A stretch of DNA of 64,000 nt, taken from assembly GCF_934725225.1 (NCBI RefSeq), contig NZ_CAKVAM010000007.1, forward strand, positions 13,035 to 77,034, in the 5' to 3' direction. A program made the translations under genes and the position numbers. Shown piece by piece: positions 32,326-64,000 of this stretch. Position 1 is the stretch's first letter, and each line of letters starts with the position of its first letter. Origin of the DNA: an uncultured Treponema sp. (GTDB lineage: Bacteria; Spirochaetota; Spirochaetia; Treponematales; Treponemataceae). The notes under the pieces were generated by a model, which was given only the letters and a program-made list of their open reading frames with translations, made no database searches and was not told the origin of the DNA.

Positions 32326-32441
32326 AAGATTTAAACATAAGGAGGCTAAGAGATGAAAAAGACTCTTATCGCGGTCGCAGCGGCTGCCGCACTTACAGCA
32401 ACTTCTGCTTTCGCAGAAATCACATTCGGAGCATGGCTTCG
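32326..32441 (+). repeat. Shared leader of Msp-like genes, copy A
   Basis: 116-bp perfect inverted repeat of 35867-35982; 32337-32442 is identical to 59778-59883. Confidence 0.97.
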
Positions 32442-33573
32442 TTCTGCTCTTATTCCTGTAGCTTATGATGGCGAGGATTACCTTGGAGGACTTACACAGT
32501 CATGGGGCGGAGCAGCGCGTACTGCAGTTCTTGGTGTAAACGGCGTTTCTGAAGACGGAATGGCTGGATTCACATTTGAAATCCGTAACCAGGCTGGCGA
32601 AGGAATCAATATGGGTGACCGCACAGTGGCATGGCTCAAGCCAATTGAGCAGCTCAAGCTTTCTGTTGGTAAGTTTGACGGCGGAGACAACGGATTCAGA
32701 CAGGGAACAGGATTTGGTGTTTGGGACTATGTACGCCCATCTAGAACAACATCTTTGTTCTTCAATGGTGATGACGGAATCATGGATTCTATTGGCGGAG
32801 ACGGCTTCATGGCAGAAATCTTCCCGATTGAAGGCTTCAAAGTTATGGTAAACGTTCCATTCCTTCAGTACAAAAAGGAAGTTCATAACTGGGTTTACGA
32901 CAGTGAAGCAAAAACTTGGAAAGATGATAAAGGAACAGAAGTTGAGTATGTAAAGCACGCTTACGACATCTATAAGAAGACACAGATTGGCGCAGCATAC
33001 ACAATCGACGGTGTTGGAGAATTGAAAGTTCTTTGGACAAATGTAAGCGAAGAAGAAGAAGTTGGCACAAAGAAATATAATGATGTAGGAAATCTTGGAA
33101 TCGCTTTCAATCTTTCTGCTGTAGAAAATCTTAACTTGGCAATTGGCGCTAAGTTCGATATTTCCGACAAAGAAATTGATCCTGATGGCAACAAGGCTTA
33201 CTTTGCAGCAAAGGCTTCTTACAATGTTTCAGACGCTATCACATTCAACATGGTTGGCGGTATAAAACTCTTCAAGAACGATGACTATGATCCAAAATGG
33301 GGAATCGGTGCTGGTGTAGACTATGTAGTTATGGACGGTCTTACAGTTAATGCTGACATCCGCTACATGAGCGAAACAAAAGTTAACGGCAATGGTAGTG
33401 AAGATGATTCACTTTCATTCCTTGTTGCAGCTGCAAAGACTATTGGAAGCAACGCTTCTCTTGGAGTTGGATTTGAAGGAGCAACAAACGGCGGCGGATT
33501 CTCAACATTTGACGCTGCAAAGACAGACGCATTCACATGGTGCGTTCCAGTTATGTTCAACCTTTCATTCTAA
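32353..33573 (+). CDS. Msp-like outer-membrane beta-barrel protein, paralog A
   Basis: Signal peptide MKKTLIAVAAAAALTATSAFA, amphipathic strands, terminal Phe; divergent paralog of B/C/D. Confidence 0.8.
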   Translation: MKKTLIAVAAAAALTATSAFAEITFGAWLRSALIPVAYDGEDYLGGLTQSWGGAARTAVLGVNGVSEDGMAGFTFEIRNQAGEGINMGDRTVAWLKPIEQLKLSVGKFDGGDNGFRQGTGFGVWDYVRPSRTTSLFFNGDDGIMDSIGGDGFMAEIFPIEGFKVMVNVPFLQYKKEVHNWVYDSEAKTWKDDKGTEVEYVKHAYDIYKKTQIGAAYTIDGVGELKVLWTNVSEEEEVGTKKYNDVGNLGIAFNLSAVENLNLAIGAKFDISDKEIDPDGNKAYFAAKASYNVSDAITFNMVGGIKLFKNDDYDPKWGIGAGVDYVVMDGLTVNADIRYMSETKVNGNGSEDDSLSFLVAAAKTIGSNASLGVGFEGATNGGGFSTFDAAKTDAFTWCVPVMFNLSF

Positions 33574-33609
33574 TTCTAGCTGCAATTTGCGTTTGACTTA
33601 GTAATGCAG

Positions 33610-33635
33610 AAGCCTCCCGAAAGGGAGGCTTTTTT
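33610..33635 (+). terminator. Terminator shared by the paralog family
   Basis: AAGCCTCCC-GAAA-GGGAGGCTTTTTT. Confidence 0.9.
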
Positions 33636-33640
33636 GTGTG

Positions 33641-34411
33641 TTATTTCAGTGCGTCTTTTTCCGCGAGAAGAGCTTTTAAGCGAGCTATTTCTTCTGCCTG
33701 CTGGTTAATCAGGCGTTCGTCCTTGGCTTTCTGCATTGCGGCGCCTTCAATTCTGCCTTTTTCCTGAACATCGTATTCATGAAGGTTGTATGCCAAATAT
33801 GAATTTACAAATTCCTGCACTTCTTTAATCTTGTCCACCGTCATGTCGAGCCTCCTTAAAAATTTGTCCGTTGCCTTGCTTCTTTTAAGATACTCCAGAA
33901 ACGCCCGGATTTCAATATCACCGCATTTTTCCCATGCTGCCGCATTAAAGATTATCTTTTGAGAGAAGTCTTCAAGCTGAATGTCTTTGTTTTCCCTGCA
34001 AAATGACTCAAATGTATATATTGGAAGACCGTGTCCCAAGGGATCATCTATGCACAGGAACACAACATAGCTTTTCTTAAGCATTGCATACGAAGCTCCC
34101 TTCAGCAGGCTGTCTGAGTCCAGTATGGACTGATAATAACGCATTCTCTGAGCAATTGCGGCGTAGCTTCCAGACTGCATCTCAATGTCAACCACTTCGT
34201 CTGGAGTTTCCGTGTAGACATCCAGCCTTATGCCCTTTCCGCTGTAAATTGGAGATATTGTCTTCTGCGCCTCAGGAAATTTTATTTCCCTTGCCTCGAT
34301 TTTAAGCAGCCTTCTTATAACCTCGCGGCAAATATCCTTGTTTCTCATTACATAGCTGAACATAAAATCATCTGTGAACCTCAGTTCCTCCACCGGCTTA
34401 ATAAAATACAT
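33641..34411 (-). CDS. Rpn-family PD-(D/E)XK nuclease (PDDEXK_2)
   Basis: FTDDFMF, GIRLDV, DIEMQ and RMRYYQS motifs; AAGGAGG SD before ATG 34411. Confidence 0.9.
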   Translation of the reverse strand: MYFIKPVEELRFTDDFMFSYVMRNKDICREVIRRLLKIEAREIKFPEAQKTISPIYSGKGIRLDVYTETPDEVVDIEMQSGSYAAIAQRMRYYQSILDSDSLLKGASYAMLKKSYVVFLCIDDPLGHGLPIYTFESFCRENKDIQLEDFSQKIIFNAAAWEKCGDIEIRAFLEYLKRSKATDKFLRRLDMTVDKIKEVQEFVNSYLAYNLHEYDVQEKGRIEGAAMQKAKDERLINQQAEEIARLKALLAEKDALK

Positions 34412-34480
34412 AGAGCCTCCTTGCATATTCTATGTATTTTATTGCCGTAAAAAAATATTTTATGCAGACTGTTCTTTTAT

Positions 34481-34626: not shown

Positions 34627-35955
34627 CTAGAACCAAACGCTTACAGATACTGGGATTGCCCAAACGAAGTCATCAGCTGCGTTAGCTTTGAGTCCGCTTA
34701 CGCCATCACCTTTTTCACCTGGTGTTCCCCATGTGAATCCACAGCCATTTGTTGCGCCCTGGAATCCGATTCCGAGAGAACCGTTGCTTCCAACAGACTT
34801 GTTAACTCCAACGAGGAAGCTGATTGCGCCTTCATCGCCGTCTTTTCCGTATGACTTTATGTCATATGCCTTTTCAGCAGATTTTGCGTTGCTCATGTAG
34901 CTAACATCTGCAGCCAAGCTAAGACCATCCATGATTACATAATCTACACCAGCACCAACAAAGAATACATTGTCAACAAGTTCACCGTCTCTTGCAACAC
35001 AGTCATCCTGATACTGAACATATCCGCCGTCTACAGAGAATTTCATCTGCTCAGAAACCTGGTAAGAAGCGCCAGCTGTGAACGCCATCTTGAGGTAGTC
35101 AGGAGCATAGTCCTTGTCTGCTATACCAAAGCGAGCACCTACTGTTACAGAAAGGTTCTCAACAGCATTAAGATCAAATGCAACTCCAATCTGTCCTGTT
35201 GTCTTTCTTGCTACTTCACCGTCAACATCATTTAAGTTGTAAGTTGGTACTGTGCTTACTTCGTTATCAAGAACCCAGTTTCCGTCATTGTCATACTTGT
35301 TTCCCAATGACCATGATACTGAATCAGCTGTAGCTTTTGTATCTTTATAATCACCGATGTACTGTGCCTTGAATTTACCTACACCTTCAATTGTGTAGCC
35401 AAATCCAACCTGAATGTTCTTGTATACATCTTCAGCCTTTGCATAAGTAGAAGACATTGGAATAACTGCGAATGCGTGGAGTCCTTCGATTGGGTCAGCC
35501 TCTAACATAAGACCGTTCTTTGAAACTCCGTCAAATGTGAGTCCTTCGCCGTCGAATGCCCAGTTGTAAGGTCTGAGCCAGTTCCATGAGCCGTAGCAGA
35601 AGTCGCCGCGGAGTCCGTTTGTAGGTGAGTCGAACTTACCAACAGAGATTTTAACCATGTCAACAGGCTTAACCCAGAGGTATGCATCATCGCCCTGTCC
35701 GAGTCCGCTCTCGAAGTCGTTGTAAACGCCCATTACGAATCCGGTCTTTCCGTCCTCAGAAGTTCCGTTGATGTTGATGCGGGCTGTACGTGCGCCCCAT
35801 CCCCATGAGTTTGCAACGCCAACCATTGCATCTTCACCATTGTGTGCTACTGGCGAAGCAAGGACGCGAAGCCATGCTCCGAATGTGATTTCTGCGAAAG
35901 CAGAAGTTGCTGTAAGTGCGGCAGCCGCTGCGACCGCGATAAGAGTCTTTTTCAT
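34627..35955 (-). CDS. Msp-like outer-membrane beta-barrel protein, paralog B
   Basis: Same leader; close to C outside variable loops; ends VSVWF. Confidence 0.82.
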   Translation of the reverse strand: MKKTLIAVAAAAALTATSAFAEITFGAWLRVLASPVAHNGEDAMVGVANSWGWGARTARININGTSEDGKTGFVMGVYNDFESGLGQGDDAYLWVKPVDMVKISVGKFDSPTNGLRGDFCYGSWNWLRPYNWAFDGEGLTFDGVSKNGLMLEADPIEGLHAFAVIPMSSTYAKAEDVYKNIQVGFGYTIEGVGKFKAQYIGDYKDTKATADSVSWSLGNKYDNDGNWVLDNEVSTVPTYNLNDVDGEVARKTTGQIGVAFDLNAVENLSVTVGARFGIADKDYAPDYLKMAFTAGASYQVSEQMKFSVDGGYVQYQDDCVARDGELVDNVFFVGAGVDYVIMDGLSLAADVSYMSNAKSAEKAYDIKSYGKDGDEGAISFLVGVNKSVGSNGSLGIGFQGATNGCGFTWGTPGEKGDGVSGLKANAADDFVWAIPVSVSVWF

Positions 35956-35982
35956 CTCTTAGCCTCCTTATGTTTAAATCTT
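35867..35982 (-). repeat. Shared leader of Msp-like genes, copy B
   Basis: Perfect inverted copy of 32326-32441. Confidence 0.97.
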
Positions 35983-36022
35983 GGGGTTCCCCAGCGAGAA
36001 TTTCAGAAAAATTCATAGAGAG

Positions 36023-36051
36023 TTGACACCATTGGAGACACCTTTTATATT
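36023..36051 (+). promoter_or_regulatory. sigma70 promoter of the hic remnant, pointing away from paralog B
   Basis: TTGACA-17-TATATT. Confidence 0.7.
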
Positions 36052-36071
36052 GTTTGTAGGGGGATTCTTTT

Positions 36072-36451
36072 ATGTCGAAGTGGGAAAATAAAATAAAAAG
36101 CATTGAAGAATATATGTCGCTTCCATATAGAATGGAAATTGAACCGGATTCAGATGAGGGAGGATTTGTTGTTTCATTTCCTGAGCTTCCCGGATGCATT
36201 TCGTCAGGCGGCGATATTCAGCAAGCTGTGGCAAATGCAAAGGATGCGCAAAAGCATGGCTTGAGGCTGCAATTGAAGACGGAATTTCAATAAACGAACC
36301 TTTGCCTGTTGAAAAATATTCAGGACAATTCAAGCTGCGATTGCCAAAAAGCCTTCACAAACGCCTTGCAGAAGAATCAAAAAGTGAAGGAATAAGCATG
36401 AATCAATACTGTGTATATCTCTTGGCGAAAGGATGTGCATACCAAAACTAA
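36072..36451 (+). pseudogene. hicB: HicB-family antitoxin, frameshifted
   Basis: EGGFVVSFPELPGC is in one frame; AWLEAAIEDG and YSGQFKLRLPKSLH are in another. One base is missing at the A4 run 36250-36253. Confidence 0.85.
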
Positions 36452-36526
36452 ACAAAAAATATCTTTTATATAGAAGAAAAGCGATTGCGTTATTGTTTTG
36501 CCCGGGCGTTTTGGTATATTATGAAA

Positions 36527-36665
36527 CTGTTTGAACTGGATTATCCAGGAAGAATCCTAATCGCCTCCTTGGGACTTGAGCCCGCACATAAGAATAGGAC
36601 TTTAGCTCGGCTACTTTCGGGCAGGATAGTCCCGTTTCAAACTTCAATCTTTAAACTCAAGGGGC
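36527..36665 (+). ncRNA. Candidate bridge/seek-type RNA upstream of the IS110 ORF
   Basis: Extended -10 (TGgTATATT, ending 36520). Nested stems GTTTGAA/TTCAAAC, CTGGA/TCCAG, GGGACT/AGTCCC, GCCCG/CGGGC and TAGC/GCTA. Confidence 0.5.
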
Positions 36666-36669
36666 AAAT

Positions 36670-37911
36670 ATGTACATAGTTGGAATCGACATCGCAAAAA
36701 AATCACATCAGGCGGCAATAATGAAGCCGGACGGAACTCTTGTGGGTAGGTCATTCAGGTTCACAAACACAAAGCAAGGGTTTGAGTTTCTTATGGACAA
36801 GCTTGCGGCGGTAGATTCCAATCTTGAAAATTTTGAATTCGGAATGGAAGCCACGGGGCACTACTGGCTTAACTTGTACACTTGGCTTGCAGACAAGAAC
36901 GCAACAGTTCATGTAATAAATCCGCTCCAGTCAGACGCGCTCCGAAATCTTTACATCAGAAAAACAAAAACAGATTCCGTGGACGCAAAAATAATCGCGC
37001 AGGTAATCAGAATCGGGCAATATTCAGAAACCAAGCTTGCTGATGACCGTATGCTTATGATGCGCGACTTGTGCCGCCAGCGGTTTTTCCTTGTGGACAT
37101 GGTTGCAAATTTAAAGCGCAAAATAATCGTGATGATGGATAGAATTTTCCCGGAATACCAAGGATTTTTTTCAGACACGTTCGGAAAATCTTCTACTGCA
37201 ATCCTCAAGCACTGCACAACCCCGGAAGAAATCACGTTGTTCGGAGAAGACAATCTTGCGCAGCTTCTTCAGGTGGCTTCCAACGGAAAGTTCGGACTAA
37301 AAAAAGCCCAGGAACTTATAAGCCTTGCCCGCAATTCTTTTGCCGCCCGGCTTTCTTCAAAGACACTTTCGCTTCTTGTAAAGCAGATGATGGAGCAGAT
37401 GGAACTTCTTCAAAATCAGATTGAAATCCTTGAAAAGCACATATCGTCGCATTTTAAGTCGTTCGGAACAAAAATTACGCAGATTCCCGGAATTGGACCA
37501 GTTCTTGGAGCTTCTATTCTAAGCGAAATTGGCGACATAAGCCGTTTTGCAAATCCAAAGAAACTGTGCGCTTATGCTGGAATAGACCCTTCGGTAAAGC
37601 AGTCAGGCCAGTTTTTAGGGAACGAAAACCACATGTCCAAGCGCGGTTCCGGCTATCTTCGCCGATGCCTTTGGATGGCTTCATTTGTTTCCGTGAACCA
37701 TTGCCGTGAAATAACGATTGTTTACAAGTCGCAGGTTTCCAAGGGAAAAACGCATTTTCAGTCAATGGGCTTTGTCTGCCACAAGTTGCTTAACATAATC
37801 TACACAGTCTTAAAAAACGACATAGACTACAGCCCGATGCTCTGCATAAATCCTGCCATAACAGCAAGAAGTTCCCGTCGCATAGCAAGAGCCGCCCTAA
37901 AAGCCCGGTAA
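36670..37911 (+). CDS. IS110-family transposase/recombinase (DEDD)
   Basis: GIDIAK, GMEATGHY, KTDSVDA, IPGIG, AYAGIDP, QSG and SKRG motifs; intact 413 aa. Confidence 0.95.
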   Translation: MYIVGIDIAKKSHQAAIMKPDGTLVGRSFRFTNTKQGFEFLMDKLAAVDSNLENFEFGMEATGHYWLNLYTWLADKNATVHVINPLQSDALRNLYIRKTKTDSVDAKIIAQVIRIGQYSETKLADDRMLMMRDLCRQRFFLVDMVANLKRKIIVMMDRIFPEYQGFFSDTFGKSSTAILKHCTTPEEITLFGEDNLAQLLQVASNGKFGLKKAQELISLARNSFAARLSSKTLSLLVKQMMEQMELLQNQIEILEKHISSHFKSFGTKITQIPGIGPVLGASILSEIGDISRFANPKKLCAYAGIDPSVKQSGQFLGNENHMSKRGSGYLRRCLWMASFVSVNHCREITIVYKSQVSKGKTHFQSMGFVCHKLLNIIYTVLKNDIDYSPMLCINPAITARSSRRIARAALKAR

Positions 37912-38136
37912 AAATACAACTGTCGTATTTGAATAGATTGCCGTGTCAAGCACGGCAATGACAGGTATTTATAAAAATGCCAAAGCGGGTTCTTAGGGCG
38001 GCAGCCCTAAGCGTTGCAAGGAAAGGAGGGTGGTATGGAGGGAAGAAACGGCGATTACATCGCTTCGCTTACGAATTAGTTGGTTTTCCTCCCTCCATAG
38101 ACTTTAGCGGCACGGAATGTTAAAATAGTTACATAT

Positions 38137-39204
38137 ATGTACACACGAGATTTGCAGGAAATTCCTCCGTCATTTGTTCAGAATGGGCGGCCGGTGTTCG
38201 GCACGTTCCGGGGGCATCCTAAGCGTTTTGACATCCGCGGAGTTTATAGGCCTTATGGAGTAATTCCGCTTCCGACTTTTATAACAAACCTTCGCATAAA
38301 GAGCCGCCTTATATTTTCGTTTAATATCGGGGAATACATCGGGCGAATCAGTTTTATAGATGCAAAAATTGCCGGATTTTCTGAAGTTGTGTTCTGGAAC
38401 AAAAATACTTCGCAGCGTTTTGCCTACCATTCGCTCATGGGACCAAGAAAAAGACTTATTCCGCACAGCCTTGAAGCGGCTTCAACTTCAAACTACAGCA
38501 AGCGGCGCTACACAAGAATCAGCTGGAACAGAGAGCAGAACAGGCTTTCGGTTATATTCGACTTGAAGGGAGATTCTGTGCGTCCTTCCGCGCGTGGAGC
38601 TTTTTCCGCAGTGTTCAACGATGTTCAGTTTGCAGAACTTACTTCTGTTCGTCCAAATCCTACTTTGAGGCGAAGCTATGCAAGCTACAGTTCTGTTCTT
38701 CCTTTGCACGGCTCTCTTACACTTTCTTACAATAGCGGCGAAACTAAAACCATGTCGGAATCTGACGGAGTTTGCTCGTTCGACATGACGCGCACTTACA
38801 TGAAATTCCGTTCGCATGGAAAATCTGTGCTTGGATTCGGGGAAATTAATGGAAAGAAAATTGCGTTCAAGCTTGCTTCCGAGTCGCATGAAAGCGTGGA
38901 CACGGACAAATACAACTGCAATGTTCTTTTTTACGATGGAAAAGCCACACCGCTTCCGCCTGTTGTAATTTCGCATTATTCAGGCATGGACAAAAAGTGG
39001 GTCATTCAAGACACGGAAAACATGGTTGACCTTACTTTTACGCCTGTTTCAATCTGCGTTAACAATGTGAATGCGTTGATTGTGCGCAGCGTGTACCATA
39101 CAATATACGGCAACTTTGAAGGAACTCTAATTACTGCCAGCGGTGAAAAAGTTTCATTCAAATCTCTTGCAGGAATTTCCGAAAATTACTTGATACGTCT
39201 TTAA
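38137..39204 (+). CDS. DUF2804-like protein
   Basis: C-terminal WVIQD-ENMVDLTFTP...YHTIYGNFEG pattern. Confidence 0.7.
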   Translation: MYTRDLQEIPPSFVQNGRPVFGTFRGHPKRFDIRGVYRPYGVIPLPTFITNLRIKSRLIFSFNIGEYIGRISFIDAKIAGFSEVVFWNKNTSQRFAYHSLMGPRKRLIPHSLEAASTSNYSKRRYTRISWNREQNRLSVIFDLKGDSVRPSARGAFSAVFNDVQFAELTSVRPNPTLRRSYASYSSVLPLHGSLTLSYNSGETKTMSESDGVCSFDMTRTYMKFRSHGKSVLGFGEINGKKIAFKLASESHESVDTDKYNCNVLFYDGKATPLPPVVISHYSGMDKKWVIQDTENMVDLTFTPVSICVNNVNALIVRSVYHTIYGNFEGTLITASGEKVSFKSLAGISENYLIRL

Positions 39205-39256
39205 CTTTTTTCAGTTCTTGAGGAGTATTTCAGTTTGAAGGCAAAATGGAGTATTT

Positions 39257-41269: not shown

Positions 41270-41292
41270 AAATTTAATAAAAAGAGGTATTT

Positions 41293-42129: not shown

Positions 42130-42175
42130 AATAAAAAAGGCTGTTCAAAATTTATTGGGCAGCCTTTAAAAAAAT

Positions 42176-50965: not shown

Positions 50966-50966
50966 T

Positions 50967-54409: not shown

Positions 54410-54687
54410 GGCTTTTCCTTAAAAACTTGAAAGACTTTTCTAAAGAAGATTCCCTAGAAAATTTTAATATTTTTTAATTAACTATCCGATATATTATTAA
54501 TAAGATAACATAGGAACGCTTTGAAGTCAAACATAATTTGCCTTGGATTTTTTTGCCAGCGCAGTCCGTTTGACAGCATACACGTCCTTTGATATACTGT
54601 TTGTTCGGTAATTCGGAAGTGGTTTTAAAAGTCAAGTTTTGAAGCTCTTTTGCTACTTTTCGGATAAAGTTTTTTACGGAGATTTTT

Positions 54688-55701: not shown

Positions 55702-55702
55702 T

Positions 55703-56119
55703 ATGGCTATTTTTAACGACAATATTTCCATTAACAGCATCCTTGGCGCAGGCTCTTCTGTAAAAGGCGATGTCAAAATAAACGGATTTGCTCGTATTGA
55801 CGGCGATATTGACGGAAACATAGAAGCTAGCGGAAATGTTATAATCGGCGAAAATGCCAGAATCCGCGGAAACATAAAAGCAAAATCCATAACAGTCATA
55901 GGCGGAATTGTTTTAGGCGACATTGTTGCTCCGGACTTTATAAAGCTTCTTTCTTCAAGCGTAGTAATCGGAGACTTGCAGACAAAAAAACTTGTCTCAG
56001 AAGAAGACGTTGTGCTGCACGGCCACTGTATTTCGCTTTCTGACAGTGCGGAATTTGCATCCGCAGTTTCACGGCAGGAAAACATGAAGGCAATCTCTTC
56101 AATGTCCATAAGGATTTAA
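55703..56119 (+). CDS. Bactofilin (polymer-forming cytoskeletal protein)
   Basis: Beta-helix repeats (RIDGDIDGNI); follows the M23 gene. Confidence 0.92.
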   Translation: MAIFNDNISINSILGAGSSVKGDVKINGFARIDGDIDGNIEASGNVIIGENARIRGNIKAKSITVIGGIVLGDIVAPDFIKLLSSSVVIGDLQTKKLVSEEDVVLHGHCISLSDSAEFASAVSRQENMKAISSMSIRI

Positions 56120-56120
56120 A

Positions 56121-56663
56121 ATGGAAGTTGAAGGCACATCCTCAAGCCTGTATTTTTCCGCGGCGGCTTCCATAGCGAACGCTCAGGCTCAAAAAGCCCA
56201 AAAAGACGAAAAATCCCAAAAGACAGACAAAGCAAGGCGGAAGCTTTTTTCCAGCGCAATGGAAAAGGCCCGGGAAGAATTCGCCCTGCAAAAAGACGGA
56301 TTTCCCAAAGAAATTGCGGGGTTGGACACGGAAGATGCGGCAATCTACTTAAAAGATCAGGCTGACATGGCGGCAGACCGTCTAAAGGAAAAACAGACCC
56401 AGGAAGAATTCGCTGACTACAGAAAAAAAGTTTCGCAGTTTTTAAGATACCTTGCAAAAAACAACTTTGAAGTAAAAAAAAGAGAACGGCGCGGATTCAC
56501 AAGAAAAGGAAAACCGCTTGATCCGCAGTTCAAGATTGTCGTCATAAATCAGAAACTGGACGAAATGGCAAACTGGCTTTTAAGTTCGCACAAGGAAGCG
56601 TTCGCAATGCTTGCCCGAGTAAATGAAATCAGCGGCCTGCTTGTAGACCTTATGGCGTCATAA
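56121..56663 (+). CDS. YaaR/DUF327-family protein
   Basis: YRKKVSQFL and EISGLLVDL motifs. Confidence 0.8.
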   Translation: MEVEGTSSSLYFSAAASIANAQAQKAQKDEKSQKTDKARRKLFSSAMEKAREEFALQKDGFPKEIAGLDTEDAAIYLKDQADMAADRLKEKQTQEEFADYRKKVSQFLRYLAKNNFEVKKRERRGFTRKGKPLDPQFKIVVINQKLDEMANWLLSSHKEAFAMLARVNEISGLLVDLMAS

Positions 56664-56691
56664 TTGATAAACTAAGACAACTGGAGTTTTT

Positions 56692-57615
56692 ATGTCTGAT
56701 ATTTTTGAAAACGATATATATGAAGAAAATGAAGATCTTGCCTCTCTTGAAGATTCGCAGGAATCAGAAAGCACCGACTCAAGGAATTTTGTTTTTCCCA
56801 AGGAACTTTACAAGCTTAAGCTGGTCTATTCATTTGAAGGAATTTACGCAACGTTTCCTGGTGGAAAACTGAATGGCGGCGACAAAGTTATTGTTCCCAC
56901 GCGCTACGGACTTGACCTTGCAGAAAACCTTGGAATTTCTAAAGTTCCTGTTGGAATAAAGCCCGGCGACGTTGTGCAGATTGCTCGCAAGGCAAACAAT
57001 GACGACCTTGAAAAAGCTTCTTCTCTTGCGGAAACTGAAAAGTCCGCATTCAAAGTATTCCGCGAAAAAGTTGAGCATCATCATTTGGACATGAAGCTTA
57101 TTTCCGTGCATTTTCTTGTGGGCGAGCAAAAAGCCTTGTTCTTTTTTTCCAGCGACAACCGGGTTGACTTCCGCGAGCTTGTAAAAGACCTTGTTTCAAT
57201 CTTTAAAATGCGAATTGAACTGCGCCAGATTGGAGTGCGCGACGAATGCCGGATTACTGGAGGACTTGGCGTGTGCGGACGACCTTACTGCTGCAACAGC
57301 ATAAGCGATAAACTCCGGCCAGTAAGCATAAAAATGGCAAAGGAACAAAACTTAAGCCTGAATTCCATGAAAATCAGCGGACAGTGCGGACGCCTTTTGT
57401 GTTGCCTAAGCTATGAGTACGACTGGTATTCCGAAGCGCGCAAAAAACTCCCGAACGAAGGCATAAGGCTTTTTTACGACGACACAAATTTCCGCGTAAT
57501 CGAAGTGAATCCAATAACTTCCATGGTAAAAATGCTTGGCGAAGACGGCCGCATAATCGAAGTGAACGCCAAACGCTTTGTCCGCGAAGGCAACAGATGG
57601 AAAATCGGAAACTAA
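56692..57615 (+). CDS. ricT: PSP1/RicT (YaaT)-family Fe-S protein
   Basis: RVDFRELV, RQIGVRDE, GVCGRPYCC and CGRLLCCL motifs. Confidence 0.9.
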   Translation: MSDIFENDIYEENEDLASLEDSQESESTDSRNFVFPKELYKLKLVYSFEGIYATFPGGKLNGGDKVIVPTRYGLDLAENLGISKVPVGIKPGDVVQIARKANNDDLEKASSLAETEKSAFKVFREKVEHHHLDMKLISVHFLVGEQKALFFFSSDNRVDFRELVKDLVSIFKMRIELRQIGVRDECRITGGLGVCGRPYCCNSISDKLRPVSIKMAKEQNLSLNSMKISGQCGRLLCCLSYEYDWYSEARKKLPNEGIRLFYDDTNFRVIEVNPITSMVKMLGEDGRIIEVNAKRFVREGNRWKIGN

Positions 57616-57691
57616 AAAACTGAAAGAACGCGTAACTGTTGAAAATAAAAACGATAGGGAATATACTTGAATCCATATCAAAGAGGTTTTT

Positions 57692-58507
57692 ATGCTTTTA
57701 GTTGACAAAAATATAAAAAAACTGGTTTCGCAGGGAAAACTTATTGTTTCAGGCTATAAAGAAGAAAATCTAAAAGGAATTGCTTACGAACTTTCTGTTG
57801 ATTGCATATATGACTCTCAAAAAAACAGCGTTTTGTCTTTTGAAATGAAACCTGGAGATGTGGTTTACATAAAGACAAATGAAGAAATAGAACTTCCGCC
57901 TCAGCTTACTGCTCGGATTATTGAAAGAAATTCAGTTATGAGAATGGGACTTAAAGTTGACGGTCCGCAGTATATTCCGGGACACAGAACATTCTGCTTT
58001 TTGCGCGTTCAAAATATTTCTGACTCTGTTCTTACGATTGCAAAAGGATTCGGAATTGCTCAGATTGCCTTTGAGGAGCTAAGTGAAATTCCAGAGCAGA
58101 CTTATGATAAGCAGCACAACGCTTCATTCAGAAACGAAAAGGATTTTGTAGGAGTTGGAAAATATCAGCCTGAATACGACAAACTTATGAAAGAATACAA
58201 AGACGCAAAAGAAGACCTTGAATCTTTAAAAGAAAAGATTTACGGAAATGTTCTTACAATAATGGGCGTTTTTGTTTCAATTTTTACACTTGTAAGCGTG
58301 AACATTCAGGCATTTGCAAGAGAAACCATTTCTAAAAATCTAATTGCCACCGTAAATCTCTGTCTTCTTACTTGCATTGCAACTTTGCTTGGATTTGTAA
58401 TGCTGATTGTCAACAAAGGCAAGAAAAAATGGTTTAGCGCAGTTTATACTGTGTTCCTGACATTGCTCGCCTGTTCAACAATAATTCTTGCCTTGCTAAA
58501 AAACTGA
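57692..58507 (+). CDS. dCTP deaminase/dUTPase-fold protein with C-terminal TM helices
   Basis: MLLVD start, ERNSVMRMG and IAQIAF motifs, then a coiled coil and ~3 hydrophobic helices. Confidence 0.7.
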   Translation: MLLVDKNIKKLVSQGKLIVSGYKEENLKGIAYELSVDCIYDSQKNSVLSFEMKPGDVVYIKTNEEIELPPQLTARIIERNSVMRMGLKVDGPQYIPGHRTFCFLRVQNISDSVLTIAKGFGIAQIAFEELSEIPEQTYDKQHNASFRNEKDFVGVGKYQPEYDKLMKEYKDAKEDLESLKEKIYGNVLTIMGVFVSIFTLVSVNIQAFARETISKNLIATVNLCLLTCIATLLGFVMLIVNKGKKKWFSAVYTVFLTLLACSTIILALLKN

Positions 58508-58569
58508 TTCTTTTCAGCTGAAAACGTGCATTTTTTGATAATTTTCTGCAATAAATATGCGGAGGATTT

Positions 58570-59619
58570 ATGAAAGAAATGCATGAACTGACTCCCGCGG
58601 AAAAATGGGAGCAAGCGACACTGGCAGACAACTTTATCTTTTGCAAAGTTATGACGGCAAACCCTGACTTGTGCAAGGAGCTTCTGGAACTTTTGCTCAA
58701 CATAAAAATTGAGCGGATTGAAATTCCTGTGGCTGAAAGAAGCTTTAAAGTTGACTACGATTCAAAGGGAATCCGGTTTGATGTCTATGTAAAGGACGGA
58801 ACCGGCCGCTGCTTTGATATTGAAATTCAGACTACAAACAGAACAAATCTTGCCAAGCGCGCAAGGTACTACCAAGGGCTTATGGACGTTGACAGCCTTG
58901 TTTCCGGCGCGGATTACAGCGAGCTTAATGAAAGCTACGTGATTTTTCTGTGCATGGAAGACGCTTTTGGAAACGGACTGCCTGTGTATGATTTTCATCA
59001 GGTTTGCAAGCAGAATTCTGACATTTTATTTAACGACGGAACTCACAAAGTCTTCTTCAATGCTTCAAAATATGATAAAATGCCCACGGAAAGCCTAAGG
59101 GAATTCTTTAAATTCCTTAACGGACTGAACGCGGCCTCGGACTTTACAGACCAGCTTGAGCAGAAAGTGAGGTACGCCAAGGCAAATGCGCAATGGAGGC
59201 ATAAGTTTATGACGTGGGAACAGGAAATGCGAATCCAAGTAAAAGAAAAATCCGAACAGCTTGCAAAAGAAATGGCTAAAGATTTAGCAAAAGAAATGTT
59301 TGAAGACAGAGTTAATGCTATGAGGGCAGATATAGAAAAAGAAGCTAAAGAAATGGCAAATGAAATTGCGGAAGATAGAGTTAATGTCATAAGAAAAGAT
59401 ATGGAAAAAGAAGCCAAGGAAATGGCAAAGTCTATGGCAACAGAAATGGCCGAAAAAATGGTGGAAGAAAAAACTGCTGCCATAGCAGAAGAACAGGCAG
59501 CTGAAAAAGTTGAGGAGACTGCAAAAAATATGCTTGCGGAAAAGATTGCGCCGGAAGTGGTTGCAAGGTGCACTGGCCTTTCGCTGGAACAGGTGAAAAA
59601 GCTTGCCAGCGAAGCGTAG
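58570..59619 (+). CDS. Rpn-family PD-(D/E)XK nuclease with repetitive helical tail
   Basis: DNFIFCKVM, GIRFDV, DIEIQ and RARYYQ motifs; AKEM repeats. Confidence 0.92.
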   Translation: MKEMHELTPAEKWEQATLADNFIFCKVMTANPDLCKELLELLLNIKIERIEIPVAERSFKVDYDSKGIRFDVYVKDGTGRCFDIEIQTTNRTNLAKRARYYQGLMDVDSLVSGADYSELNESYVIFLCMEDAFGNGLPVYDFHQVCKQNSDILFNDGTHKVFFNASKYDKMPTESLREFFKFLNGLNAASDFTDQLEQKVRYAKANAQWRHKFMTWEQEMRIQVKEKSEQLAKEMAKDLAKEMFEDRVNAMRADIEKEAKEMANEIAEDRVNVIRKDMEKEAKEMAKSMATEMAEKMVEEKTAAIAEEQAAEKVEETAKNMLAEKIAPEVVARCTGLSLEQVKKLASEA

Positions 59620-59717
59620 ATTCCACTAAAGAATTCCGCGGAATTTGCCGAAAATATAGCGTTGCTTCTACAAACCGTAGGCACTTCTAAAGGTTACAAA
59701 AATTTTATTTTTTTTTG

Positions 59718-59746
59718 TTGACTTATAGATTGTCTTGGGGTAGAAT
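59718..59746 (+). promoter_or_regulatory. Strong sigma70 promoter of paralog C (candidate expression site)
   Basis: TTGACT-17-TAGAAT preceded by a T-rich UP-like tract. Confidence 0.85.
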
Positions 59747-59777
59747 AACGATATGATATCGTATGGTATCGCAAAAA

Positions 59778-59883
59778 ATAAGGAGGCTAAGAGATGAAAA
59801 AGACTCTTATCGCGGTCGCAGCGGCTGCCGCACTTACAGCAACTTCTGCTTTCGCAGAAATCACATTCGGAGCATGGCTTCGT
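59778..59883 (+). repeat. Shared leader of Msp-like genes, copy C
   Basis: Identical to 32337-32442; inverted relative to copy B. Confidence 0.97.
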
Positions 59884-61053
59884 GTTCTTGCTTCGCCAGT
59901 AGCTTCAACAGGCGAGGACATCATCGCCGGCGTTGAGAACTCATGGGGATGGGGCGCACGTACAGCCCGCATCAACATCAACGGAACTTCCGAGGACGGA
60001 AAGGCCGGATTCGTAATGGGCGTTTACAACGACTTCGAGAGCGGACTCGGACAGGGCGACGACGCATACCTTTGGGTTAAGCCTGTTGACACTGTAAAAA
60101 TCTCTGTAGGTAAGTTTGACTCACCTACAAATGGACTCCGCGGCGACTTCTGCTACGGCTCATGGAACTGGCTCAGACCTTTCAACTGGGCATTCGACGG
60201 CGAAGGACTTACATTTGACGGAGTTTCAAAGAACGGTCTTATGTTAGAGGCTGATCCAATGGAAGGACTCCACGCATTCGCAGTTATTCCAATGTCTTCT
60301 AGCTATGCAAGCGCAGAGGAAGTTTACCGCAATATTCAGGCTGGCTTCGGATATGCAATCGAGGGCGTTGGTAAGCTCAAGGCTCAGTTCATCGGTGACT
60401 ACAGCTATACTCAGAAAGACGACAAACTTGGAGATTGGTACATCGATGATGATGGTGATGTTGTACGTCATGATACAACTCCTAATGCTGCTGGCAAGAA
60501 AGATGAAGACAAGACAACAGGAAAAATCGGTGTTGCATTCGACCTTACATCAGTTGAAAACCTTTATGTAACAGTTGGCGCACGCTTCGGTATCGCAGAT
60601 AAAGATCTCGCACCTGACTACCTTAAGATGGCATTCACAGCTGGCGCTTCTTATCAGGTTTCTGAGCAGATGAAGTTCTCTGCAGATGGTGGATATGTTC
60701 AGTATCAGGACAAGTTCAATGCTGATGACGACAGCCTCTTCTTTGTAGGAGCAGGTGTAGACTTCGCTGTAATGGACGGACTCAACGCAGTTGCAGATGT
60801 TCGCTATATGAGCAACAAATACGGAAAGAATGGCGATGACGGTGCTATCAGCTTCCTCGTTGGAGTTAACAAGTCTGTATCAAGCAACGGCTCTCTCGGA
60901 ATTGGATTCCAGGGTGCAACAAACGGATGCGGTCTTGTAACAAATGACGGTTCAGGAATTGTTGCAGGTCAGTCTTATACAGCTGGCGAAGCTAATGGTG
61001 ATTCAGACGCATTTGTTTGGGCAATCCCAGTATCTGTAAGCGTTTGGTTCTAG
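59794..61053 (+). CDS. Msp-like outer-membrane beta-barrel protein, paralog C
   Basis: Same leader, terminal Phe, promoter-proximal. Confidence 0.82.
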   Translation: MKKTLIAVAAAAALTATSAFAEITFGAWLRVLASPVASTGEDIIAGVENSWGWGARTARININGTSEDGKAGFVMGVYNDFESGLGQGDDAYLWVKPVDTVKISVGKFDSPTNGLRGDFCYGSWNWLRPFNWAFDGEGLTFDGVSKNGLMLEADPMEGLHAFAVIPMSSSYASAEEVYRNIQAGFGYAIEGVGKLKAQFIGDYSYTQKDDKLGDWYIDDDGDVVRHDTTPNAAGKKDEDKTTGKIGVAFDLTSVENLYVTVGARFGIADKDLAPDYLKMAFTAGASYQVSEQMKFSADGGYVQYQDKFNADDDSLFFVGAGVDFAVMDGLNAVADVRYMSNKYGKNGDDGAISFLVGVNKSVSSNGSLGIGFQGATNGCGLVTNDGSGIVAGQSYTAGEANGDSDAFVWAIPVSVSVWF

Positions 61054-61225: not shown

Positions 61226-61378
61226 ATGAAAATACAAGAATACAATGCTCCCAGTCATTGTCCGGCTTGGTCTACGATGTTTAAAAAAAGCCAATTGATA
61301 ATTTGTTTCAGCTTTATTAAACAGACGCTTCCTTGTTTTAATATTGACCATGTGTTTATTATAGTGTACATTAAAAAT

Positions 61379-61669
61379 ATGTATCAAATTTTTAAAACGG
61401 AAAACTACTTAAAATGGTTCAAGAAGCTGCGCGACAGCACGGCAAAATATGCAATCATCTTAAGAATAGAACGTCTTAAAAACGGCAACTTCGGCGATTC
61501 TAAAAGCGTTGGTGAAAAAGTTTTTGAATTGCGAATTGACACAGGAAAAGGATATAGAGTTTATTTTACAAACAAGGACAAGGAAATTATTATCCTTTTG
61601 GCAGGCGGAAACAAATCCACACAAGAAACTGATATACAGAAGGCTAAGGAATTGGCAAAGGAGGTCTGA
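61379..61669 (+). CDS. RelE/ParE-family toxin (HI1419-type addiction killer)
   Basis: GNFGDSKSVG, ELRIDTGKGYRVYF and LLAGGNKSTQ motifs. Confidence 0.92.
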   Translation: MYQIFKTENYLKWFKKLRDSTAKYAIILRIERLKNGNFGDSKSVGEKVFELRIDTGKGYRVYFTNKDKEIIILLAGGNKSTQETDIQKAKELAKEV

Positions 61670-61672
61670 ATT

Positions 61673-61978
61673 ATGGAAAAAATAAAGCTTACAGCTTACA
61701 ATGCGGCTGAGTTTCTGGACACAGAGAAGCTTCAGAAAGGCTACCTTGACTATGTGGCAAAAGAAGGCACGCCGGAAGAGCTAATCGAAGCAATAAAGAC
61801 AGTCGCAAGGGCAAAAGGAATGTCCAAGACCGCAAAGGAAACAGGAATTTCCCGCAGTGGACTTTACAAAGCCCTGTCTCCGGACGGAAACCCGACAATA
61901 GACACATTGATTAAAATTGCAAAGTCCATAGGGTATAATCTGAACATCTCCTTCTCGCCAATAAAGACAAACTGCTGA
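61673..61978 (+). CDS. HTH antitoxin (HI1420-type addiction antidote)
   Basis: VARAKGMS and LYKALSPDGNPT motifs; GGAGG SD. Confidence 0.92.
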   Translation: MEKIKLTAYNAAEFLDTEKLQKGYLDYVAKEGTPEELIEAIKTVARAKGMSKTAKETGISRSGLYKALSPDGNPTIDTLIKIAKSIGYNLNISFSPIKTNC

Positions 61979-62070
61979 AACTTCTACTCTTCTTGCGGAA
62001 AAAGAATGCAAAAAGCCATTCCTTATGCTTGGTCATTATCCTGCAGAAAATGCAGTTTGCAATACTTTTA

Positions 62071-63279
62071 TTATAAATCTTCCATTAACCATTCCAATGC
62101 ATTTTTACGGATAATTCCGTCATAATCACCTTGCGGATCGTCATCCAAAGTTAAAATCATTTTAGGATAATTATCTTTTATTGCCTTCAGCGGACGCAGC
62201 TCCCTTTCCAAAGTCTGCTCATCGCGGACAGTGGCAGCTACCTGAATATATGTGTTTCCGTCCTGCGACTGGGCTACAAAATCAACTTCCGCCTCGTCAA
62301 TTTTTCCTACATATACATTGTAGCGGCGGCGGACAAGCTCAAGATAAACTATATTTTCCAGAATATGACCGGCGTCCATTGACTTTTTTCCTATCAAGGC
62401 TGAACGCAGGGCAATATCCGCCACATAATATTTTTCAAGTGATTTCAAGTATTCTTTTCCCTTGATATTATAGCGTTTGACCTTATAGACGATATATGTT
62501 TCCACGAGGGACGAAAGATAGTTTTCAACCATGCGCGAGTCAGTCTTGCGGCCGCTGCTTGTCATTGTGTCTGCGATTTTCTTGCTGGAAACTTCGAGAC
62601 CGATATTGTCAAAGACAAACTCAGCAACGCTTTGGAGCTGGAAGACATCCGTGATTTTTTTTCTTGAGATAATGTCTTTCACAAGAATTGTATTGTATAG
62701 GCTTTCCAAGTAGTCATTTATGCCAGCCCTCTCAATACAGAGCGAATAAGGAAAAGAGCTGTTTTCCAGATACTGCCTGTAGGCATTTGGAAGATTCTGC
62801 TCAAGTTTTTTGGCATGCACAAATTCCTTAAATGAAAGAGGCTGCATTTTTATTTCCACATAGCGGCCGGAAAGATAGGTTGCAAGCTCGCTGGACAGAA
62901 TGCCTGAATTGGAGCCTGTGATGTATATGTCCAAAAGAGGATTTATGAAAAAACTATCTACAACTTCCTCAAACTGCGGCACGCGCTGAATTTCGTCAAA
63001 GAAAAGATACATTCGCCTGCCGGGAATCAGACGTTCCTTTACATAGGCGTAGAACGAGTCATTGTTGCAAAGATTTTTAAATTCATAGTCTTCAAAATTG
63101 ATTGAGACAATCTGATTTTCCTCTGCGCCTTCCTTGAGCAGGATTCTCTGCCACTGGGCAAGCAGTGTGGATTTTCCGCATCTTCTTATTCCTGTAACAA
63201 CTTTTATGAGCTGCTTATCCTTAAAGGTTCGAAGGCGGTCTAAGAAGCTCTCTCTCTGTATATCAGGCAGTTCTTCCAT
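62071..63279 (-). CDS. AAA_14/DUF4143 ATPase with C-terminal nuclease-like domain
   Basis: GIRRCGKST, FDEIQ, ITGSNS, LENIV, EVDF and YIQV motifs. Confidence 0.9.
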   Translation of the reverse strand: MEELPDIQRESFLDRLRTFKDKQLIKVVTGIRRCGKSTLLAQWQRILLKEGAEENQIVSINFEDYEFKNLCNNDSFYAYVKERLIPGRRMYLFFDEIQRVPQFEEVVDSFFINPLLDIYITGSNSGILSSELATYLSGRYVEIKMQPLSFKEFVHAKKLEQNLPNAYRQYLENSSFPYSLCIERAGINDYLESLYNTILVKDIISRKKITDVFQLQSVAEFVFDNIGLEVSSKKIADTMTSSGRKTDSRMVENYLSSLVETYIVYKVKRYNIKGKEYLKSLEKYYVADIALRSALIGKKSMDAGHILENIVYLELVRRRYNVYVGKIDEAEVDFVAQSQDGNTYIQVAATVRDEQTLERELRPLKAIKDNYPKMILTLDDDPQGDYDGIIRKNALEWLMEDL

Positions 63280-63369
63280 AGTAATTTCACTTTAATGCAA
63301 GAAAGCGTAAAAATCAACAAGTTTTTGCATTCTGTTGCAAAAACTTGTTGATTTCACAGAGTTTTGTCT

Positions 63370-63532
63370 TAAACACACAAAAAAAGCCTCCCATAAGGGA
63401 GGCTTTCTGCTTGTCCAGCACATCTAGTGCGCCGTACACGTGTGATTGCCCCGACAGTCTTGCTAACAAAACTGTCAGATTCGACCGAGTTTGCAAGGCA
63501 AACTCGCCAGCATTTGCGCTATGCGCGATTGA
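63370..63532 (-). repeat. Modular hairpin 3' element plus terminator downstream of paralog D
   Basis: Inverted near-copy of 61054-61225. Confidence 0.88.
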
Positions 63533-64000
63533 CTAGAAACCAACCTGCAATGCTACAGGGATTGCCCATACGAAGTCATCGCCTGCGTTAGCAGAGATTC
63601 CTGCAAGTCCGCAGCCGTTTGTTGCGCCCTGGAAGCCAATTCCGATGTAGCCGTTGCTTGATACGTTCTTTGTAACTCCAACAAGGAAGCTGATTGCTCC
63701 GTCATCCTTGTCTTTTCCGTATCCAATGTTCTTGTAGCGAACATCTGCTGCTGCGTTAAGACCGTCCATGATTACATAGTCAACACCAGCACCGATTCCG
63801 AATGCGTTGTCTTTCTGATCACCAGCTTTTCCAACACATTTGTCCTGATACTGAACATATCCACCAGAAACAGAGACCTTCATAGCGTCAGAAACCTGGT
63901 AAGAAGCGCCAGCTGTGAACTTCATCTTTTCGTTGTCGGTGTTGAATTCCTTGTCTGCGATTCCGAATCTTGCGCCTACAGTTACAAAGAGATTCTCAAC
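63533..64000 (-). CDS. Msp-like outer-membrane protein, paralog D (3' part; 5' end outside window)
   Basis: Open frame from 64000: VENLFVTVGARFGIADK...FTAGASYQVS...FVWAIPVALQVGF, aligning with B and C. Confidence 0.85.
   Translation of the reverse strand, partial: VENLFVTVGARFGIADKEFNTDNEKMKFTAGASYQVSDAMKVSVSGGYVQYQDKCVGKAGDQKDNAFGIGAGVDYVIMDGLNAAADVRYKNIGYGKDKDDGAISFLVGVTKNVSSNGYIGIGFQGATNGCGLAGISANAGDDFVWAIPVALQVGF

Follow-up and report, generated by a model that had tools for sequence, protein, structure and literature searches.

The window analysed here is a stretch of 64,000 nucleotides (nt) from contig NZ_CAKVAM010000007.1 of an uncultured Treponema sp. (assembly GCF_934725225.1). The subject of this report is a locus in its second half, where four related genes for porin-like proteins (A, B, C and D) begin with a common leader sequence, where a single strong promoter site is recognisable, and where a gene of the IS110 family of insertion sequence (IS) recombinases lies beside one of the leaders. 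On balance we favour the interpretation that the locus is a porin switch with one expression site, operated by recombination between the leaders, and that this recombination is probably guided by an RNA associated with the IS110-like gene.

Four porin cassettes with one leader

The cassettes are arranged in the order A (+ strand), B (- strand), about 24 kb of other genes, C (+ strand) and D (- strand). Cassette A (32353..33573, +) codes for 406 amino acids (aa) with a signal peptide and a C-terminal Phe, B (34627..35955, -) for 442 aa, and C (59794..61053, +), which is the copy behind the promoter in this genome, for 419 aa. The window includes only the 3' part of D (63533..64000, -), the whole gene extending over 63533-64828. 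The leader of A (32326..32441, +) consists of 27 nt of upstream sequence plus codons 1-30, and it forms a perfect inverted repeat of 116 nt (100% identity) with the leader of B (35867..35982, -), which is the one beside the recombinase gene. The leader of D was found by inspecting the contig beyond position 64000: it lies 740-855 nt past the end of the window (window-equivalent 64740-64855, minus strand) and is 100% identical to those of A and B over the 116 nt. The leader of C (59774..59882, +) is a direct repeat of that of A (the two start at 59774 and 32333, respectively); it aligns at query positions 8-116 with 99% identity, and its identity to the other three leaders starts just before ATAAGGAGG.

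In the whole genome (2.38 Mb in 8 contigs) the 116-mer occurs four times, always on contig C7 and always at the porin locus, and tblastn searches found exactly four porin paralogs. A 12-mer taken from the 5' edge of the leader has four matches in the window (with at most one mismatch), against 0.13 expected. The first 30 codons of the cassettes are identical at the nucleotide level despite mature-protein identities of 39-74% (39-40% between A and each of the others, 53-54% between D and either B or C, and 74% between B and C). A reading made earlier from the sequence alone had anticipated much of this anatomy: the order and orientation of the four genes, the perfect 116-bp inverted repeat at 32326-32441 and 35867-35982, the sharing of A's leader with C (about 108-109 bp are common to the two), and the identity at synonymous sites in the face of a strongly diverged mature A protein. 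It had allowed for a leader in front of D only conditionally, and that leader exists.

That sequence-only reading had also called the genes Msp-like, and this part of it we reject, there being no model of the Msp (major sheath protein) family among the Pfam hits. As judged from sequence matches and a structure model, the four proteins are general-porin-like beta-barrels. At E-values up to 0.01, Pfam searches gave weak matches of A, C and D to beta-barrel and porin families, chiefly OMP_b-brl and Porin_2, and no match for B. An AlphaFold model of C, made from an alignment of 14 sequences, is an all-beta barrel of moderate confidence (predicted local distance difference test score 67.4; predicted template modelling (TM) score 0.63). 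When this model was compared to solved structures with Foldseek, the matches were to general porins, namely Omp32 (E = 1.5e-9), the major outer-membrane protein (MOMP) of C. jejuni, OmpU, PorB and OmpF, with E-values from 1e-9 to 1e-7 and TM-scores of 0.4-0.6. A signal peptide, an all-beta barrel, sequences that end in F and a fold match to solved porins are thus all found. Relatives in the databases, from uncultured Treponema and T. succinifaciens, are named either 'porin' or 'hypothetical protein'. Related loci in species-representative genomes are mostly in Treponema metagenome-assembled genomes (MAGs) or isolates, with a few assigned to Spirochaetia, Spirochaetaceae or Spirochaetales and one (L057) to Traorella; where a source is stated, it is horse faeces, rumen, or the reticulum or rectum of a ruminant. 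The placing of the system in gut treponemes by the sequence-only reading agrees with this.

Cassette C is preceded by a promoter site, TTGACT-17-TAGAAT (59718..59746, +), which agrees with the consensus at 10 of 12 positions and is followed by a hairpin, GATATCGTATGGTATC, in the 5' untranslated region (UTR) at 59755-59770. A scan for consensus promoters found no site on the genes' own strand before A or D and only a weak one (9 of 12 positions, at 36078-36049) before B, so the claim of the sequence-only reading that C alone has a consensus promoter holds as far as such a scan goes. The neighbouring genes on the upstream side of A, B and D are all transcribed in the direction away from the cassette (an RNase J-type gene at A, a HicB-like remnant and the IS110-like gene at B, and an AAA_14 gene at D), which makes read-through into these cassettes unlikely. 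From the promoter scan we infer that A, B and D are silent, and we refer to their leaders as silent sites and to that of C as the expression site.

The HicB-like antitoxin frame (about 36072-36480, +), which lies between the leader of B and the RNA of the recombinase gene, seems to be frameshifted, with stops in its translation, and is not at that position in most other species. It is preceded by a divergent promoter, TTGACA-17-TATATT, at 36023-36051.

The block of 24 kb between the leaders of B and C (35983..59773) is bounded by the recombinase gene on the B side and by the promoter on the C side, and what lies in between are ordinary housekeeping genes (by Pfam, ThyX, a PheS-type tRNA synthetase, RadA-like, Dus, TatD, GGDEF and others). 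The gene immediately upstream of the expression site (58570..59619, +) has a Pfam match to PDDEXK_2, and a second gene of this PD-(D/E)XK nuclease family lies between A and B (33641..34426, -; Pfam E = 7.4e-10). The segment between C and D contains a toxin-antitoxin-like pair (Gp49/DUF891 and an antidote of the HI1420 helix-turn-helix type; 61226..61978, +) and a gene for an AAA_14/DUF4143 ATPase (62071..63279, -), all by Pfam. PDDEXK_2 genes, which belong to the Rpn/YhgA-like nuclease-transposase family, cluster at porin loci: two of the four copies in this genome are here, and the locus of a related genome, G007, has three (L001 4745-5581, 12325-13143 and 15255-16115). A role for them in stimulating recombination is conceivable.

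Two further repeats were seen near the leaders. Upstream of A are two tandem units of 58 nt (32104..32224, +), 90% identical to each other and each starting with CCCCAAnATTTAAA, a motif that by eye also precedes the silent-site leaders; a related unit sits upstream of D, at about 64856-64940 (L043 1856-1940). These units may be remnants of past leader junctions, or a binding site. Within each leader, a 6-bp inverted repeat, TAAGAG...CTCTTA, with a 10-nt spacer brackets the start codon (59789-59814 at C), and could be either a hairpin in the mRNA over the start codon or a protein-binding site.

Re-pairing and conservation of the locus in other genomes

We searched metagenome contigs with a 38-nt leader pattern and obtained 40 distinct leader copies, with flanks about 92-95% identical to the window. 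Each copy was given an upstream class, defined by the 250 nt located 5' of its leader. The promoter class (uC) has 18 members, including the window's C; class uX1 has nine, the class beside the recombinase (uB) eight, uA three and uX4 two, and the rest are singletons. We then made a maximum-likelihood tree of 38 mature bodies, for which six of the 40 metagenome copies were dropped (four at contig ends, one with a truncated open reading frame (ORF), and one partial). On this tree the upstream labels change 21 times, compared to a mean of 21.0 for shuffled labels, so upstream class and body are unlinked and their pairing looks random. The 15 promoter-site bodies fall into six clades (one A-like body, three D-like, five in a second D-related clade, and one, two and three in three B/C-related clades), and the seven uB bodies are spread over four. 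Near-identical bodies are found behind different upstream classes, for example in L004 (uC), L005 (uX1) and the window's A (uA), and there are pairs of contigs with 99.3% identical 3-kb upstream flanks whose bodies are 36%, 48% and 69% identical. In the 40 aligned copies, leader positions -20 to +88 are 97-100% identical and the adjoining columns 40-70%; positions -12 to +26 carry no weight in this comparison because they are fixed by the search pattern.

Long contigs of high coverage with three or four leaders show consistent permutations. In one contig (L014) a D-related body is at the promoter site, followed by the toxin-antitoxin module and a C-like body that are inverted relative to the 24-kb block. 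This arrangement is the product expected of a crossover between the leaders of C and D. A 40-kb contig (behind L039 and L019) has the block and the outer flank oriented as in the window and the cassettes permuted (A', D' / B', C'), with the toxin-antitoxin module inverted and inside the A..B segment, an arrangement for which exchange at the 3' ends is needed as well. Conserved at the 3' ends of the cassettes are the C-terminal coding stretch, the 3' UTR and the terminator, which by eye are about 85-90% alike and not identical; the mean column identity of the 3'-end alignment is 60% with A included. We considered an inversion of the 24-kb block in the L039/L019 contig and ruled it out by synteny, the block being in the window orientation and the bodies permuted. 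In another contig (behind L008 and L013) the block is reversed relative to the 65.1-71.6-kb flank, but this contig is non-canonical and has a coverage of 3.6, and we give it no weight.

The Gp49/HI1420-type toxin-antitoxin pair travels with the cassettes, inverted in one case (L014) and displaced to the A..B segment in another (L019). Many MAG contigs have one of their ends no more than a few dozen bases from a leader (L044, L048, L051, L052, L065, L069 and L088), and in G065 all three leader-bearing contigs (C16, C69 and C152) stop 25-30 codons into the gene. Contig breaks of this sort are expected at a repeat, and would also fit mixed orientations in the sampled populations.

Where the recombinase gene and its neighbours are 98-99% identical to the window (L045/L050, which is G050, and L073/L068), the porin bodies are 70-79% identical, so turnover of the bodies is much more rapid than that of other parts of the genome. 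The candidates that we scored form 1106 clusters at 90% identity. Taking these observations together, we regard it as very likely that the locus re-pairs one promoter with alternative porin cassettes through recombination at the leaders. The sequence-only reading is thus supported in part, the points that stand being one expression site, promoterless cassettes, re-pairing of promoter and bodies at the leaders (which is seen repeatedly across natural populations) and inversion of the C..D segment (seen in one contig).

The layout of the locus is conserved. In 10 genomes the promoter-site and silent-site leaders are identical to each other from exactly 2 nt before AAGGAGG, for 68-125 nt. Between species the leader differs at synonymous sites, which implies that it evolves in concert within a genome. 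Wherever the expression site was captured, its upstream sequence (a GATAyCGTATGGTATC hairpin followed by a run of A) is present at one site per genome and not at the other leader sites of the same genomes, and TTGACT-17-TAGAAT is conserved there too where there is enough flank. A PDDEXK_2 gene usually precedes the promoter site, and the neighbourhood is kept in L046, L050, L068 and L077 and, more distantly, in L074, L082 and L080. The order of silent pair, recombinase gene, housekeeping block, promoter and second pair recurs in G094 (with a block of about 28 kb) and in G076 (about 42 kb).

A more distant sister clade of the same porin family (G007, which is L080, and L081, L084 and L085) has a gene for a serine recombinase of 204 aa beside the cassettes, and not an IS110-like gene. 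In G007 it is at L001 19218-19832 (Pfam Resolvase, E = 2.8e-32). The layout in this clade is the same, with one promoter-like site and silent sites with a common upstream region, with identity from the ribosome-binding site onward. Among the scanned ORFs of positions 30000-64000 of the window there is no serine recombinase gene beside the cassettes. All three leaders of G007 contain a perfect palindrome of 18 bp, TTTTTTCA-AA-TGAAAAAA, centred on the start codon, which could be a crossover site of the serine recombinase or the chance result of a T-run followed by Met-Lys-Lys.

The IS110-family recombinase gene and the RNA upstream of it

At the B end of the 24-kb block is a gene for an IS110-family DEDD recombinase of 413 aa (36670..37911, +), which makes the analogy with Moraxella pilin inversion, drawn in the sequence-only reading, an apt one. 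The protein matches the Pfam domains DEDD_Tnp_IS110 (1.5e-46) and Transposase_20 (9e-24) and is homologous to the bridge recombinases of known structure IS621 (8wt6, 7.4e-23) and ISCro4 (9t56, 1.3e-23). Residues D7, E60, D102, D105, G304, P307, S312 and G313 are invariant in nine orthologues (60-75% identity), the last four being spaced as in the G--P----SG serine motif that the accessible part of PMC11187229 gives for IS110-family proteins.

The gene does not behave like a mobile element. IS110-like matches with E-values of 1e-20 or better occur in 11 of 121 genomes, the window's own included. This genome has one copy, and there is one whole copy (at least 59% identity) in each of the eight other genomes of the genus with an orthologue; the outliers are G081, with a whole copy plus a fragment, G068, with two fragments only, and G014, with a 28% relative. 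The gene is divergently adjacent to a porin leader in eight of nine genomes, counting the window's own. It is syntenic across species: the order IS110-like gene, DUF2804 gene, 670-aa ORF is found at all nine loci with enough flank, and the identities of the DUF2804 and 670-aa proteins track that of the recombinase. Multiple copies at variable positions, which would mark a mobile element, were thus not found. We also rejected the possibility that the gene is an ordinary IS inserted into a leader, since there is no second half-target after the ORF, the copy is single, and the neighbours on both sides are fixed. Just past the stop codon, at 37934-37963, is a hairpin-forming repeat of 29-30 nt with exact copies at five other places (contigs C1, C2 and C3), which looks like a repetitive extragenic palindromic (REP) or terminator element.

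The sequence of about 130 nt between a promoter-like TATATT box and the start codon of the recombinase gene is conserved in 11 loci, and it includes a structured RNA (36537..36635, +) that folds into a three-way junction with one internal loop. In the alignment of the 11 loci, 98.3% of the pair cells are standard base pairs and eight pairs are changed on both sides; values as high as these did not occur in any of 500 shuffles, and controls with slid sequences gave 32-53% pairing. A covariance model of this RNA (R1) matches exactly the nine of 121 genus genomes that have the protein, once in each, just upstream of the ORF. Rfam has no match in 30000-64000 at the gathering threshold, and none in 35900-38200 at E-values up to 1. 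One arm of the RNA consists of a stem (UCCUA/UAGGA), the internal loop and a closing hairpin (UGGG...CCCG), and the other arm is a simple hairpin whose sequence varies.

The two strands of the internal loop match the edge of the leader. On the 5' side of the loop, where the strand UCGCCUCCU is located at 36561-36569, the sequence reads (A)AUCGCCUCCU, of which GCCUCCU is identical to the bottom strand of the leader. On the 3' side it reads CACAUAAGAA, of which ACAUAAG (36586-36592) is identical to the top strand. The DNA matches of the two strands overlap by the dinucleotide CT/AG, within ACATA-AG-GAGGC. In the bridge RNAs of IS110 elements, as described in the available text of Durrant et al. 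(PMC11208160), the target-binding loop has a left target guide (LTG) that pairs with the bottom strand and a right target guide (RTG) that pairs with the top strand, both including the CT core, and the LTG is nine bases long and the RTG four, or longer in some orthologues. In silico, the geometry of the loop fits that target-binding loop, so far as the source describes it. The predicted target of 11 nt, TAAGGAGGCTA, is at 32338-32348 in the leader of A, 35960-35970 in that of B and 59779-59789 in that of C; it occurs four times in the genome, at the four leaders, and is present at every leader of every genome that we examined. The predicted core lies 3 nt inside the point at which identity between the promoter-site and silent-site sequences begins.

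From genome to genome the 3' loop strand is variable, and it matches a site of its own genome to different degrees. In the window's genome ACAUAAG matches the silent sites (ACATAAG) at seven of seven positions, and in the L055 and L056 types AAAUAAG matches the promoter site (AAATAAG), also at 7/7. In G065, AUUUAAG matches the adjacent silent site (GTTTAAG) at 6/7. The best match within the same genome is 6/7 in G076 and in L051 and 5/7 in G094. This agreement is suggestive without being decisive.

A proposed switch, its alternatives and known systems

We propose the following mechanism. One site carries a strong promoter and a 5' UTR hairpin, in the order PDDEXK_2 gene, TTGACT-17-TAGAAT, leader, and in this genome C occupies it. 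A, B and D share with C, base for base, the ribosome-binding site and the stretch for the signal peptide and first beta-strand, and lack the promoter. Given the arrangement L> A..B <L, 24-kb block, L> C..D <L (where L is a leader), crossover between opposed leaders would invert the DNA between them and set another body behind the promoter: C x D would flip a segment of 5 kb, B x C the block of 24 kb, and A x B a segment of 3.6 kb. Exchange at the conserved 3' ends and terminators would give further permutations. The catalyst would be the IS110-family DEDD recombinase that the locus itself encodes, beside B, and the RNA from the 5' region of its gene would fold to present a single binding loop like that of a bridge RNA, with the strands ..GCCUC-CU and ACAUA-AG pairing with both strands of 5'-ACATA-AG-GAGGC-3' around the CT/AG core at the 5' edge of the leader. 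Two RNA-protein units, one on each leader, would synapse, and strands would be exchanged at the core. The perfect homology of about 105 bp downstream may allow branch migration and gene conversion, keeping the leaders identical; in a hybrid form of the model, RNA-guided exchange would create a Holliday junction that migrates through the leader and homogenises it before it is resolved.

This model builds on the anatomy of the locus, the shuffling of cassettes in populations, one inverted segment, the conservation of the recombinase, its RNA and their synteny, and the complementarity found in silico. Switching would presumably be reversible within a clone, and the RNA may be used as a guide, as its match to the leader suggests. 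The chance that the IS110-like protein and its RNA are the catalyst appears to us close to even. Tentatively, and at similar odds, we suggest that gut and rumen treponemes may have tamed an IS110 transposase into a chromosomal RNA-guided invertase, with one loop aimed at the shared ribosome-binding site, two units that synapse leaders at an AG/CT core, and an identical stretch of about 105 bp used for branch migration and gene conversion.

Several points count against the proposal. The evidence for re-pairing is between assemblies, in which contigs can be chimeric at the 116-bp repeat, and several metagenome contigs are of low coverage, such as the one behind L008 and L013. The B x C inversion was not observed: both long contigs that clearly span the 24-kb block and the outer flank match the window orientation. 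The promoter scan is consensus matching only, and the total of promoter sites per region is not above the shuffled expectation. In G079 (L097, C137) the recombinase gene and its RNA are present beside an unrelated gene, and we found no porin or leader in this genome with the queries used; the porin locus may have been lost or left unbinned there, or the link between recombinase and porins may not be obligatory. The fold of the single RNA sequence is not unusually stable (z = -1.18), and the structural support is the covariation. The 3' loop strand covaries with its sites only in part; these sites are rich in A and T, and UAAG is invariant, as is its target. The sequence GCCUCCUU could instead be an anti-Shine-Dalgarno element. 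The coincidence of the identity boundary with the ribosome-binding site is less specific than it first seems, because the boundary is also there in the serine recombinase clade. A second loop of the donor type was not found in the alignment, in the 3' tail of the RNA or downstream of the ORF, and bridge RNAs are defined by two loops. An RNA with one loop that acts on two like sites is nevertheless conceivable, since homotypic 'half-match' recombination between two donor-binding loops (DBL-DBL) has been reported for IS621 in the accessible part of a preprint (10.64898/2026.08.31.748434). Finally, and as the main objection, a crossover fixed at position -14 leaves the identity of about 105 bp downstream of it unexplained, and this identity resembles a RecA substrate.

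The last point leads to the explanation that recombination by RecA, with gene conversion, does all the shuffling at the leaders of 109-116 bp and at the 3' ends, as at the sap locus of Campylobacter fetus, and that the IS110-like gene and RNA are a fixed neighbour with another role or none. We consider this, the main rival, unlikely, but not negligible. A perfectly homogenised leader in every cassette has the look of a substrate for homologous recombination, and a crossover fixed at -14 does not need it; on the other hand, a repeat of 109 bp is rather short for RecA to act on efficiently. A second zone of exchange is available at the conserved 3' ends and terminators, and some arrangements require it. 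The lack of a donor loop in the RNA and the presence of a recombinase gene without a detected porin in G079 also speak for the RecA explanation. What it does not account for is that a single-copy IS110-family gene with its catalytic residues intact stays beside the leader down to 59% aa identity, that at the leader edge the RNA loop corresponds to both DNA strands, aligned as a target-binding loop would be, and that the sister clade has an invertase of a different family at a similar locus.

Alternatively, the RNA could act on RNA and not as a guide to DNA, either as a 5' UTR with an anti-Shine-Dalgarno element that controls translation of the recombinase or as an antisense RNA that pairs with AAGGAGGC of the porin mRNAs. 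It is true that the porins' ribosome-binding sites are complementary to GCCUCCUU, as in part is that of the recombinase itself, and since GCCUCCUU never varies, covariation cannot settle its pairing partner. Pairing of the ACAUAAG strand with porin mRNA is impossible, however, as the two are alike in sense, and only the other DNA strand would be a meaningful partner for it. Moreover, covarying stems close the internal loop that holds both loop strands, which gives it the form of a target-binding loop. We therefore think this alternative improbable. It is more improbable still that there is no programmed switch, with the porins expressed independently from unrecognised promoters, the leaders kept identical by concerted evolution or by selection on translation and secretion signals, and the re-pairing due to rare recombination, horizontal exchange of cassettes or assembly chimeras: the promoter calls are consensus matches, several contigs have low coverage, and the difference of 20-30% between bodies in genomes with 98-99% identical neighbour genes makes allele replacement part of the picture, but the promoter site and 5' UTR hairpin are conserved as the sole such site in many genomes, class and body are paired as randomly as shuffled labels even where flanks are 99.3% identical, the long high-coverage contigs with three or four leaders are consistent permutations, and two families of invertase are tied to the locus in two clades.

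In diderm bacteria, the principal surface antigens, receptors for phages and gates for nutrients are porins. If the proposed leader switch is real, the use of one porin at a time in abundant gut and rumen treponemes would explain their very large allele diversity and would bear on the evasion of phages and of immunoglobulin A in the gut. If, in addition, the IS110-like protein and its single-loop RNA are the catalyst, a bridge-type recombinase would have been recruited for a host function, and nature would offer a minimal scheme for inverting DNA between two like sites under the guidance of an RNA. The enzyme would be a natural 'homo-bridge' recombinase serving its host by driving antigenic or phage-receptor variation, and Piv-type invertases might then use RNAs too. 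Among the openly available papers that we searched, we found no such system for gut or rumen treponemes and no chromosomal IS110-family recombinase that serves its host with a guide-like RNA; what we found for T. pallidum was gene conversion in TprK.

The combination of several cassettes, one promoter and nested inversions is of a kind already known, from the sap, Omp1 and Piv systems. The sap genes of Campylobacter fetus, which code for S-layer proteins, lack promoters of their own and have in common an identical 5' region beginning upstream of the start codon; there is a single promoter, and nested inversions, some of them of large segments, place one homologue at a time behind it. Promoterless homologues with an identical 5' region and one promoter are found here too. 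The treponeme locus differs from sap in coding for porins and not S-layer proteins, in the length of the shared region (about 110 bp, compared to several hundred), and in the presence within the locus of a gene for a dedicated IS110-family recombinase with an RNA that matches the leader.

In Dichelobacter nodosus, four linked genes for Omp1, the major protein of the outer membrane, undergo multiple site-specific inversion, according to the available text of PMC4196234; both the phylum and the type of candidate recombinase are different here. TprK of Treponema pallidum is an outer-membrane beta-barrel antigen with one expression site and silent donors (PMC10063172, as far as accessible). Its short variable regions are changed segment by segment, by gene conversion that is non-reciprocal and draws on 53 donor cassettes, whereas at our locus whole genes with their own leaders are re-paired to the promoter, and the protein family is a different one.

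The closest parallels are within the recombinase family. Piv of Moraxella lacunata and M. bovis is a DEDD recombinase related to the transposases of IS110 and IS492, and its gene is beside the invertible DNA by which a surface protein is switched (accessible part of PMC11187229). Here, too, the gene of an IS110/IS492-related recombinase lies beside surface-protein genes on invertible segments. Piv belongs to a group of short proteins of 315-330 aa in the same source, as seen in part, whereas the 413 aa of the protein described here are in the size range of the IS110 subgroup; by its size class it falls outside the short Piv/IS492/IS621 branch. Other differences are that there are four cassettes on nested segments here, one of them a block of 24 kb, that the crossover is predicted at the ribosome-binding site and not, as for Piv, inside the coding region, and that we propose a guide-like RNA, for which there is no mention in connection with Piv in the portion of PMC11187229 that was available.

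With the bridge-RNA systems of IS110 and IS621 the locus has in common the protein family, an RNA upstream of the ORF, and loop strands that are directed to opposite DNA strands and overlap at a CT core (compare the available text of PMC11208160). It differs from them in that the gene is not mobile and the RNA has one binding loop without a donor loop; both substrates would be sites of the same kind, and the predicted outcome is an inversion that serves the host, not an insertion.

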